Sequence record: OL739525.1 | Source: Escherichia phage dw-ec | DNA length: 64,000 bases | Strand: one strand, 5' to 3' | In this document: piece after piece, positions 10,245 to 24,966 of the stretch | Layout of the letters: every line of letters begins with the position of its first letter | Numbering within the stretch: position 1 is the stretch's first letter | The notes under the pieces: generated by a model | Database searches by the model: none | Seen by the model: the letters and a program-made list of their open reading frames with translations, nothing else | Told to the model about the DNA's origin: nothing | Program-made: the position numbers and the translations under genes

Positions 10245-11204
10245 TTAGATTCCAATAATAGTTGCTGCTCGTTTATCTTTGGATCTGGTGTTTGCTCTAC
10301 TACGTGACAAACCTCCACAAGATTCACAACGAATGATATCGAAAGAACTTACCGCAGTGTGGTATTGCTTACCAGTAACAACGTGAACATGATCACTGCC
10401 GCAACGAGAACAACGGACTTTCTCATCTGGGTAATAAGCGGATAAGTTAGGATGCTGTGGAATCCACGGAAGGATTTTCATATACAAATCACGAAGTGAA
10501 ACAACATCACCATCATTGTAAATCTGCATACGTTCAAAAGCATCACGATCACCTTCACAACATGCTTTCCATAAAGGGAACCCCTCGTTATCCAGTTTTT
10601 CACTTTCTGTTTCAAAATACGCTCCCATCTCTTTAAGAGAATTGGAAGGAAGTGCAAACTGTTTCTTAGCTGCCTTCAAGGTATCAACAACTACATAGTT
10701 AGAAGGTGGAGCCATATCATGATATGCGAAGCGTTGGTTAATGTATGCACGGTCAAACTTGTACCCATTGTGAGCCACAACAACATCAGCTTCATTCAGA
10801 AGATTCCAAAGATCTTGGCAAAGTTCCCAATCATCTGTATGATCGATATCGAAAAGAGGATAAGAAGATAAGTTCTTACCTTCTACTTCACCTGTATACA
10901 AATCAGCAGAAGAGTAAGATAACAAATAACCCCTACGAATTACCTGGTCTGGAGAAATGAAGGCTTTGAATCGACGGAAAGTATATGCAATCTCTGGTGC
11001 AGTTTCAACATCAATAATTTTAATAACTGGTTGTTTCTTTTTAACTGGCTCTTGTTTACTTGCACCGAAACGTGCAAGAAAATCATTTACTGTGCTTTTT
11101 CTTGTTGGACTACCTAAAACAATTGCTGCAATATTGCGAGAAGACATACCCTCTGCACTCATACTAAGGATATCTGCTTTCTGCTCTTCTGTTAATCTGC
11201 TCAC
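10245..11204 (-). CDS. DEDD-family 3-prime to 5-prime exonuclease with N-terminal HTH and C-terminal zinc ribbon
   Basis: IDVETA (Exo I), HNGYKFD (Exo II), YNDGD (Exo III); N-terminal sigma-region-4-like HTH; C-terminal CSRCG...CESCGG. Confidence 0.6.
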   Translation of the reverse strand: MSRLTEEQKADILSMSAEGMSSRNIAAIVLGSPTRKSTVNDFLARFGASKQEPVKKKQPVIKIIDVETAPEIAYTFRRFKAFISPDQVIRRGYLLSYSSADLYTGEVEGKNLSSYPLFDIDHTDDWELCQDLWNLLNEADVVVAHNGYKFDRAYINQRFAYHDMAPPSNYVVVDTLKAAKKQFALPSNSLKEMGAYFETESEKLDNEGFPLWKACCEGDRDAFERMQIYNDGDVVSLRDLYMKILPWIPQHPNLSAYYPDEKVRCSRCGSDHVHVVTGKQYHTAVSSFDIIRCESCGGLSRSRANTRSKDKRAATIIGI

Positions 11205-12319
11205 TCTGCCTCCTGTTGTGAGATGTATGACTGAAGCATACTCTCAAATGTTGTATCGTCATTATCCCAGCGTTTCATGTATACCAACTGGAAAATTGTT
11301 TCTATCCATTCATCTGTTGTCATATGGACTTCTTCTCCATCCCAAGAAGTAAAATTAACGCCATCTGGGAACCACGAGTAGTAAGTATCTTTAACTGTTT
11401 GGAAAAGTTCTGCTTGAGTTTTACAAGCTGAAAGAAGATTAAAACAAGTAATATCTCCGAACTTAATATCAAAATCTTGATAAGGTCGGATACTATCTGT
11501 TTTATCTCCCATTAGCATCTGATAGGCTAACCAATAACTTCCCCAACCTTTAACTTCTTTCTTTTTACCTTTATCTACGATCCATATGTCGCCAATAGAC
11601 TCGTCAATAAGAATTATATCTGGATTTTTAAATACTCCATCCTCTTTGTAGAAATTAAAAAGGATACTAGGAGTATGTAAACTATCTTTATCTATAGACA
11701 CTACGATATAAGAAAATTTACCCGTCCTTTTATAATCTTTATAACCTTGGAAACCATACTTCTCTAACTCATCGTCAGCCTCTATTACAGTAACAACATC
11801 ACCATTGTGGAACTCCACAAGATAATCTTTGGTTTCTGAAAGCTGAAGTGGTTTGATATCTAATCGTTCAGATTTATATTCTACAGGCATTTTGAAGGCG
11901 TGTCTGAAAGTTTTTCCTACGCCAATAACCCCGCAATATTTTTCTAAACGTAGATGTTTTAGAATACCTAAGACTTTTGTTTTAGCTGCTTGGAAGGTGT
12001 GTCCGATATCTTCTGGCGGGTATTGCTTATCAATAATTTCGAACTCTTCCTTTGTGAAGGGACGTTTGTTTTTGGAGGCTCTTTCTGCATTTGTATCTCC
12101 TAGCCAACCTCCAATTTTAGTCTTACTTTTACCCCAAAACTCTGTCTTATTTTTAAATTCCTTTTGAGCACCTGAAGGGATGTGCTTCGCAATGATTGTT
12201 CTTTTCTCTAATGCAGACGCTGCTTGGAAAGCGATCTGATCATAATCAATTGCAGCTATTGTTTCTTCGTTGACATATAAATGAAGATCTTCAGGTTTAA
12301 TTAAAATATAACCGCTAAT
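11201..12319 (-). CDS. T4 RNase H-like 5-prime to 3-prime exonuclease / flap endonuclease (start codon unresolved)
   Basis: Track ORF 11201..11890 is preceded by about 145 in-frame stop-free codons; combined product has AIDYDQIAFQ, EADD, DESIGD and LMGDKTDSI landmark blocks; no ATG/GTG/TTG in the N-terminal part, candidate ATT start at 12319 after AGGGGGA. Confidence 0.55.
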   Translation of the reverse strand: MSGYILIKPEDLHLYVNEETIAAIDYDQIAFQAASALEKRTIIAKHIPSGAQKEFKNKTEFWGKSKTKIGGWLGDTNAERASKNKRPFTKEEFEIIDKQYPPEDIGHTFQAAKTKVLGILKHLRLEKYCGVIGVGKTFRHAFKMPVEYKSERLDIKPLQLSETKDYLVEFHNGDVVTVIEADDELEKYGFQGYKDYKRTGKFSYIVVSIDKDSLHTPSILFNFYKEDGVFKNPDIILIDESIGDIWIVDKGKKKEVKGWGSYWLAYQMLMGDKTDSIRPYQDFDIKFGDITCFNLLSACKTQAELFQTVKDTYYSWFPDGVNFTSWDGEEVHMTTDEWIETIFQLVYMKRWDNDDTTFESMLQSYISQQEAE

Positions 12320-12331
12320 ATTTCCCCCTAA

Positions 12332-12541
12332 TTATTCATCGTCATCCTCTGTTGAGAATGTTTTAGTATACGGACATTGACGACTTTTCGGGATTGCTAT
12401 AACTTCATCTTGGTTAGCGTTAGAATAGTAGCAATATTTTGTGTTGCCATTAACTTCAGAATCAGACAAGATTAAAGTAATTTGACCTGCTGCTACTGTG
12501 AAACTAAAAGCTAAAAGAACGACTGTCAGAATCTTTTTCAT
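12332..12541 (-). CDS. small secreted protein (signal-peptide-like N-terminus, 69 aa)
   Basis: MKKILTVVLLAFSFTVAAGQ hydrophobic leader; AGGAGG RBS; its TAA stop is in frame with the downstream nuclease reading frame. Confidence 0.5.
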   Translation of the reverse strand: MKKILTVVLLAFSFTVAAGQITLILSDSEVNGNTKYCYYSNANQDEVIAIPKSRQCPYTKTFSTEDDDE

Positions 12542-12580
12542 AACGCCTCCTAAAAAGCCTACCTCATTAAGTAGGTAGGC

Positions 12581-12609
12581 ATAATATCATAACTAATCCC
12601 GCAAGTCAA
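12581..12609 (-). promoter_or_regulatory. sigma70-like promoter (TTGACT-17-TATTAT) followed by a 5-prime UTR hairpin
   Basis: Hexamers on minus strand; GCCTACCT-loop-AGGTAGGC hairpin between -10 and RBS. Confidence 0.4.
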
Positions 12610-23042: not shown

Positions 23043-23117
23043 GGCCCTGTAGCTCAATGGGAGAGCTGTCGGCTCATAACCGATAGGTAGCTGGATCGAA
23101 ACCAGCCAGGGCCACCA
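23043..23117 (+). tRNA. tRNA with CAT anticodon (Met or lysidine-type Ile2)
   Basis: Cloverleaf folds by hand: GGCCCTG/CAGGGCC acceptor, anticodon loop CTCATAA, CCA encoded. Confidence 0.75.
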
Positions 23118-24887: not shown

Positions 24888-24966
24888 AGCGGGATAGAGG
24901 AGTCTGGTCGTCCTCGCCAGTTTCATATGCTGGAGATCATCGGTTCAAATCCGATTCCCGCCTCCA
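24888..24966 (+). tRNA. tRNA-Met (CAT), second CAT-anticodon tRNA
   Basis: Anticodon stem CCAGT/GCTGG with loop TTCATAT, T-arm ATCGG-TTCAAAT-CCGAT, CCA encoded; A1-C72 mismatch at top of acceptor. Confidence 0.65.

Follow-up and report, generated by a model that had tools for sequence, protein, structure and literature searches.

An isoleucine-type codon as the probable start of a 372-residue exonuclease gene in Escherichia phage dw-ec and its relatives

A stretch of 64,000 nt from Escherichia phage dw-ec (sequence record OL739525.1), referred to here as the window, contains on its minus strand a reading frame that is open for 376 codons, from position 12331 down to a TGA at 11203-11201, and that encodes a putative exonuclease. 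The 147 codons upstream of the annotated 229-aa open reading frame (ORF) in this frame (12331..11891) contain neither a stop codon nor any ATG, GTG or TTG, which confirms the approximately 145 such codons described in an earlier reading made from the letters alone (the sequence-only reading), and ATG 11890 is the sole canonical start in the frame. The motifs AIDYDQIAFQ, EADD, DESIGD and LMGDKTDSI listed in that reading are all present, and the frame is indeed continuous with a 69-aa ORF upstream, across the TAA at 12334-12332 (Table 1). Initiation at an ATT near 12319, readthrough of this TAA, and a point error or pseudogene had been offered as explanations without a choice between them; comparison with relatives strongly supports the first and led us to reject the others, and very probably this is an intact gene of 372 codons which initiates at ATT 12319.

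Table 1. Features of the exonuclease locus in the window
Feature	Position	Strand	Basis or remark
Full exonuclease coding sequence as proposed	11201..12319	minus	372 codons, ATT 12319 to TGA 11203-11201
ATT, proposed initiation codon (AUU, initiator tRNA)	12317..12319	minus	Shine-Dalgarno geometry and comparison with relatives
Shine-Dalgarno sequence AGGGGGA	12323..12329	minus	Read from the sequence; duplex with 16S 3′ end -9.3 kcal/mol
Asp25 codon (within AIDYDQ), the family's first invariant acidic residue	12245..12247	minus	59-homolog alignment
Internal ATG (Met144), false start of most annotations (229-aa ORF)	11888..11890	minus	
69-aa ORF, signal-peptide-like N-terminus	12332..12541	minus	PHROG 4641 (E 7e-27); immediate upstream neighbour
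3′-5′ exonuclease / "DNA polymerase exonuclease subunit", downstream gene	10245..11204	minus	ORF list, annotations
Promoter-like site TTGACT, 17 nt, TATTAT, with upstream TG	12557..12609	minus	Consensus scan only

Such an extension is unusual within the window. None of 20,000 shuffles of the 147-codon stretch was free of stop codons, and a canonical start was absent from only 32 of the 10,223 sliding segments of 147 codons taken inside long ORFs of the window. The start-less 5′ extension of the exonuclease ORF is also the longest in the window, with 147 codons versus 75 for the runner-up.

The ATT at 12319 is separated by a 3-nt spacer from the paired part of the Shine-Dalgarno sequence, which is the same spacer as in the neighbouring genes, since the small upstream ORF, the downstream gene with a GTG start and an rdgC-like gene each have a Shine-Dalgarno sequence of -10.2 to -10.3 kcal/mol and a spacer of 3 nt. 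The modal spacer was 3–4 nt among 110 genes in a 50-kb stretch of the near-identical phage ESCO13, which start with ATG (98 genes), GTG (9), TTG (2) and ATT (1), the latter being the exonuclease gene. No usable Shine-Dalgarno sequence precedes any other in-frame ATT, ATC, ATA or CTG of the 147 codons, and a screen of the whole window found no second site where a Shine-Dalgarno sequence followed by AUU, AUC or AUA (AUH) opens a long ORF. The 111-nt region around the start folds no better than its shuffles (z = -0.25), and gating of the start by RNA structure was therefore dropped from consideration. Further ATT codons at 12307 and 12301 could in principle serve instead, or translation could begin by Shine-Dalgarno-independent reinitiation after the small ORF, the stop codon of which always lies close by in the relatives described below. 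With a start at 12307 or 12301 the spacer would be 15 or 21 nt, respectively, which falls beyond the range of the 110 genes; the isoleucine at position 5 is not conserved in one lineage (L025), and the first AUH codon alone is present in all lineages. We consider a start elsewhere in the frame very unlikely, and reinitiation at 12319 itself fits the proposed start and is no rival to it.

The start region was read in 45 loci from viral contigs and phages and in 13 metagenome loci. The clade with 52–100% protein identity to the window contains 15 distinct sequence contexts, in which the codon aligned with ATT 12319 is ATT (4), ATC (8) or ATA (3), and never ATG, GTG or TTG. In all 15 the AUH codon is located 3–5 nt after an AGGAGG-like sequence, with relatives having AGGAGG(T/A/G) where the window has AGGGGGA, so that every lineage of the clade has an isoleucine-type codon at the most common Shine-Dalgarno distance, in line with the ATT initiation proposed earlier. 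In four loci (L017, L063, L064 and L066) an in-frame TAA directly abuts the ATC, as AGGAGGAG TAA ATC GG., so that in-frame translation from further upstream is impossible and the frame begins at this codon. As judged from these alignments, all of the Stephanstirmvirinae-like clade has inherited AUU, AUC or AUA at this position. At the homologous place, TTG, GTG or ATG is found in its sister clade (Vequintavirinae-like, 37–43% identity). More distant homologs were also checked for odd starts: PAK_P5, phiPMW and Barba30A, chosen for this check on account of matches that covered two annotated features, use ATG, and ICP1 uses GTG.

The length of the G-run in the Shine-Dalgarno sequence (12324-12328, minus strand; the same site in loci L077, L078 and L079) varies among near-identical genomes, with five G residues in the window, phAPEC8 and ASO2A, six in ETEC-TG and PNJ1809-36, and seven in BI-EHEC. 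This polymorphism may reflect either true slippage, which would tune the Shine-Dalgarno sequence, or an error in sequencing the homopolymer.

The proposed N-terminal part is conserved as protein. A tblastn search with the 372-aa reading as query matched 1,232 phage records, 900 of which cover at least 80% of the query, and alignments extended from query residues 1–4 to approximately residue 365 in phi92 (78% identity), a Klebsiella relative (75%), Ro1 and SSE121 (42%), rV5-like phages (37%), Pseudomonas phage PAK_P5 (30%) and Vibrio phage ICP1 (29%). The profile of PHROG 107 ("exonuclease") matches residues 10–367 (E 1.4e-55). Compared with six relatives, the N-terminal codons have a pN/pS of 0.23–0.41 and an excess of third-position differences, and the frame of 372 codons, which has no frameshift or stop, is preserved in every lineage. 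In an alignment of 59 homologs the residues D25, R139, Y148, K149, E180, D182, D183, D210, K211, D212, D272 and D275 are invariant. AlphaFold2, run on this alignment, predicted one compact domain (pLDDT 96.5, pTM 0.90) that is structured from residue 5, with D25 at the end of a strand spanning residues 16–25.

These data bear directly on the possibility that only the annotated 229-aa protein is made, from ATG 11890, with the upstream frame untranslated. That ATG is the only canonical start available and is annotated in phAPEC8, anhysbys and many other records, but it lacks a Shine-Dalgarno sequence (+0.4 kcal/mol), and Met144 is replaced by leucine codons (CTT, CTC or TTA) in four lineages (L018, L019, L024 and L025). 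A product from Met144 would miss D25 and the predicted strands 16–25, 39–46, 93–100 and 127–137, about four strands of a single compact domain, and protein conservation of the 143 codons before it extends as far as PAK_P5 and ICP1. The alignment with homologs from related phages that the sequence-only reading had suggested as a check likewise showed a conserved N-terminus. We conclude that these 143 codons encode an indispensable part of the protein, and regard the shorter product as highly unlikely.

The same comparisons speak to the integrity of the gene. A single base separates ATT from ATG, and most annotations leave the upstream part non-coding, as might be expected of a pseudogene or of a start codon lost through sequencing error or a recent point mutation. 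The region is 95–99.9% identical to 66 phage records, nearly all of them from Escherichia phages in Phapecoctavirus, a phAPEC8-like genus of the Stephanstirmvirinae. The same 60 nt surround the start in 53 of 64 phage genomes that were deposited independently, as well as in two metagenome contigs (L012 and L060). Together with the retention of AUH at this site down to 52% protein identity, this identity rules out an error or recent mutation, and the purifying selection on the N-terminal part and the intact frames likewise rule out a pseudogene, making this explanation exceedingly improbable.

Readthrough of the TAA at 12332-12334, which would fuse the secreted 69-aa protein to the nuclease, was suggested by the arrangement in the window, where both ORFs are in frame with only this stop codon between them. 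The small ORF lies immediately upstream in 19/19 clade loci examined, with its stop codon 8–18 nt before the exonuclease start (the TAA ends 12 nt before the ATT in the window), and 8 of the 19 have the in-frame, single-stop arrangement. However, it is out of frame in four (phi92, L014, phiWec179 and L068), and in seven (L017, L063, L064, L066, L018, L019 and L025) another stop codon in the same frame comes after it. Within the genus, the variants with six or seven G residues (ETEC-TG, PNJ1809-36 and BI-EHEC) break the frame shared with the small ORF and leave AAAT ATT AGC untouched. The in-frame link noted earlier is therefore true of the window, but is not conserved across relatives or within the genus, and readthrough was rejected on this basis. 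A cluster of 444-aa proteins with 48 member sequences (P0005; locus L011, 1501-2835, Logan contig SRR30397360_28145) looks like a readthrough fusion of small ORF and exonuclease, but is a gene-caller artefact, since the contig DNA has a TAG at the junction that was read as Gln by the gene caller, and does not translate to this protein. A signal peptide on a nuclease of replication or repair would also be expected to export the enzyme, which makes the fusion functionally implausible. Taken together, readthrough is extremely unlikely.

Assignment of the 372-residue protein to an enzyme family was less direct. Single-sequence searches of Pfam (E ≤ 0.01), NCBIfam and PDB sequences gave no match, and profile searches of PDB sequences with two alignments (A1 and A2) returned only noise; relatives of the protein (P0035 and P0073–P0084) match PF02739 (5_3_exonuc_N) at 24–28 bits, below the cut-off of 34.3. 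The family was therefore assigned from structure prediction and fold comparison. The predicted structure has a PIN-like alpha/beta fold in common with solved members of the FEN / 5′-3′ exonuclease family, and the invariant carboxylates D25, E180, D182, D183, D210, D212, D272 and D275, as read from the alignment, have the number and order expected of the family's cluster of seven to eight that binds the catalytic metal ions, and are candidates for such ligands. On the basis of this model the protein is a FEN-family 5′-3′ exonuclease, of the class of T7 gene 6 exonuclease, T5 D15 and T4 RNase H, and represents a divergent branch of the family (PHROG 107) with sub-threshold membership at the sequence level. 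The likeness to T4 RNase H seen in the sequence-only reading is thus right at the level of the fold and weak at that of sequence. Unlike the three reference enzymes, the phage protein is approximately 70–120 residues longer, with family-specific insertions, and lacks a PF02739 match. To our knowledge, T7 gene 6 exonuclease, T5 D15 and T4 RNase H all start at AUG.

Initiation at codons of this type is an established, inefficient process in E. coli, where the initiator tRNA reads AUU, AUC and AUA less efficiently and initiation factor 3 (IF3) selects against them, with efficiency depending on context and being sensitive to temperature and ppGpp (PMC5499595). The only E. coli genes with an AUU start are infC and pcnB, and in all bacteria the start of infC has remained AUU or AUC, through which IF3 regulates its own synthesis (PMC5499595). 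In one reporter series expression from AUU was 6–8 times below that from AUG, and at the infC-type UAA-GGU-AUU junction, where 3 nt separate the stop codon from the AUU, about half of expression came from reinitiation and a similar share from de novo initiation (PMC3592434). For pcnB, the inefficient AUU is described as keeping down translation of poly(A) polymerase I, an excess of which is harmful (Binns and Masters 2002, as cited in PMC3592434).

We propose that translation of the exonuclease starts at the AUU (12319-12317) located 3 nt after AGGGGGA, with the initiator tRNA pairing with a mismatch at the third position. The protein would start with Met followed by SGYILIKPEDL, and the expected N-terminal peptides would be (f)Met-SGYILIK or SGYILIKPEDLHLYVNEETIAAIDYDQIAFQAASALEK. 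Ribosomes that finish translating the small ORF, 8–18 nt upstream, may supply some of this initiation. The arrangement resembles that of infC in having an AUU behind a Shine-Dalgarno sequence a few nt past an upstream stop codon (thrS UAA-GGU-AUU in E. coli, TAA-12 nt-ATT in the phage), and in a start codon that drifts among isoleucine-type codons while staying non-canonical (AUU/AUC in infC, ATT/ATC/ATA in the phages). Unlike infC, where the AUU is an autoregulatory sensor, the phage product is a nuclease that is not known to be connected with initiation, and AUA is also among the start codons of the phages. The most likely functional analogue is pcnB, which shares an inefficient AUU start on an enzyme, although it is a host gene encoding an unrelated enzyme, and toxicity of the phage exonuclease is an assumption. 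By analogy with pcnB and infC, a weak start would hold a potentially harmful nuclease at a low and IF3-sensitive level; we put the chances of this functional rationale at about even.

Several points weigh against the proposed start. AUH initiation is inefficient, at 1–2% of AUG in one survey and 5–7.5% in another (both as cited in PMC5499595), and the exonuclease Shine-Dalgarno sequence, which the sequence-only reading had correctly placed before the in-frame ATT but had called strong, is ordinary for the genome, ranking 46 of 110 by energy among the ESCO13 genes, so that the weak codon is not compensated. In phiWec179 and L068 two AUH codons are adjacent, and either could be the start. Low dosage, IF3 sensitivity and coupling, as a rationale for the weak codon, are drawn by analogy, and we found no proteomics, ribosome profiling or N-terminal sequence for the exonuclease N-terminus in the literature searched. 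Finally, the lack of a third-position G across approximately 5 inferred codon changes, for which we roughly estimate a chance of (2/3)^5 = 0.13, is not decisive for selection against ATG at this start, and is only suggestive of it.

A more elaborate role can be envisaged, in which the AUH start is a regulatory sensor that links synthesis of the nuclease to the state of host initiation (IF3 availability, ppGpp and temperature), perhaps together with a phage tRNA(CAU), such that the phage would partly reprogram start-codon selection; we consider this very unlikely. The tRNA cluster of the phage (23043-24966) does contain two tRNA(CAU) genes on the plus strand. The one at 24888-24966, identified with ARAGORN, has the initiator hallmarks of an A1.C72 mismatch, G2:C71, C3:G70 and A11:U24, and lacks the three consecutive G:C pairs in the anticodon stem (C-G, C-G, A-U, G-C, U.G) that IF3-dependent proofreading inspects. 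It is 79 nt long with a large D-loop, and is a plain tRNA-Met in ESCO13; any relevance to AUH initiation is speculative. The other, at 23043-23117, has paired G1:C72, C11:G24 and an acceptor stem of GGCCC.../...GGGCC; we take it to resemble E. coli tRNA-Ile2, and it may be a lysidine-modified reader of AUA rather than a Met tRNA. Initiator features were also looked for in the phage tRNA-Ile(GAU), and none were found.

The full gene is already present in one database record, since in ESCO13 (KX552041.2) the curators independently annotated a 372-aa "putative exonuclease" (AQM50955.1) from exactly this ATT, accompanied by a ribosome-binding-site feature. This coding sequence is the same as proposed here, but exists as a database feature only; the ESCO13 genome announcement is silent on the ATT start (PMC5374246), and we found no paper on this start or its clade-wide conservation in the literature on Stephanstirmvirinae, phAPEC8 and ESCO13. 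In ESCO13 the accession of the downstream gene belongs to the later AQM509xx series, like that of the ATT-start coding sequence, with most genes of this phage numbered AOQ27xxx. ESCO13 is alone among the 60 Phapecoctavirus records listed for this 60-nt region in having an exonuclease coding sequence that covers the ATT. The 229-aa ORF alone is annotated in phAPEC8, anhysbys and iGC_PHA_EC001, the phiWec179 and phi92 records start the exonuclease at a later TTG or ATG, and the individually inspected records, including that of the Klebsiella relative, have the gene truncated or begun at a later codon. Protein databases hold dozens of N-terminally truncated versions and one false fusion. In phAPEC8 a 40-aa "hypothetical protein" (phAPEC8_00121, 11968-12090, minus strand) is annotated in another frame inside the N-terminal coding region of the exonuclease, and is almost certainly spurious.

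The mechanism of an AUU start is already known from genes of the infC and pcnB kind, and the ATT of this gene already exists as a single GenBank feature. The exonuclease gene appears to be a further, well-conserved member of the same kind, with an AUH codon at the proper distance from a Shine-Dalgarno sequence, no canonical alternative, and conservation of the codon at the aligned N-terminus. Extremely few natural AUU, AUC or AUA starts are known from the E. coli system, the textbook cases being infC and pcnB, and a third example, in a phage growing on E. coli K-12 and conserved across a phage subfamily, would be a convenient model for asking why weak starts persist, whether to set the dosage of a dangerous nuclease, to sense IF3 or to couple the gene to an ORF before it. 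The annotation error is widespread, with most records losing the first 143 residues and some adding spurious small ORFs in the gap, and gene callers limited to ATG, GTG and TTG will keep making it. The finding is of clear value for phage annotation, and of moderate value for translation biology.

The small upstream ORF has two conserved cysteines (…YC.YSN… and …RQCP…) and an acidic C-terminal tail (…TEDDDE), and the annotation of its counterpart in phi92 includes a signal peptide (SignalP). On the other side, the GTG start of the downstream gene, with a Shine-Dalgarno sequence of -10.3 kcal/mol and a spacer of 3 nt, overlaps the exonuclease stop codon by 4 nt as GTGA, and because of this overlap the two genes are probably translationally coupled. 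Upstream of the small ORF, the promoter-like site is followed by an 8-bp GC-rich hairpin with a T-run, and then by the Shine-Dalgarno sequence and ATG of the small ORF. This candidate site, found by consensus scan only, would mark the probable 5′ boundary of a transcript carrying the small ORF and the exonuclease gene, and the hairpin could be a terminator of upstream transcripts or a 5′ stem-loop of the new one. In several unrelated phage groups, genes for HNH homing endonucleases adjoin the homologous exonuclease gene, as in Ro1, SSE121 and Barba30A (loci L008, L010 and L058).

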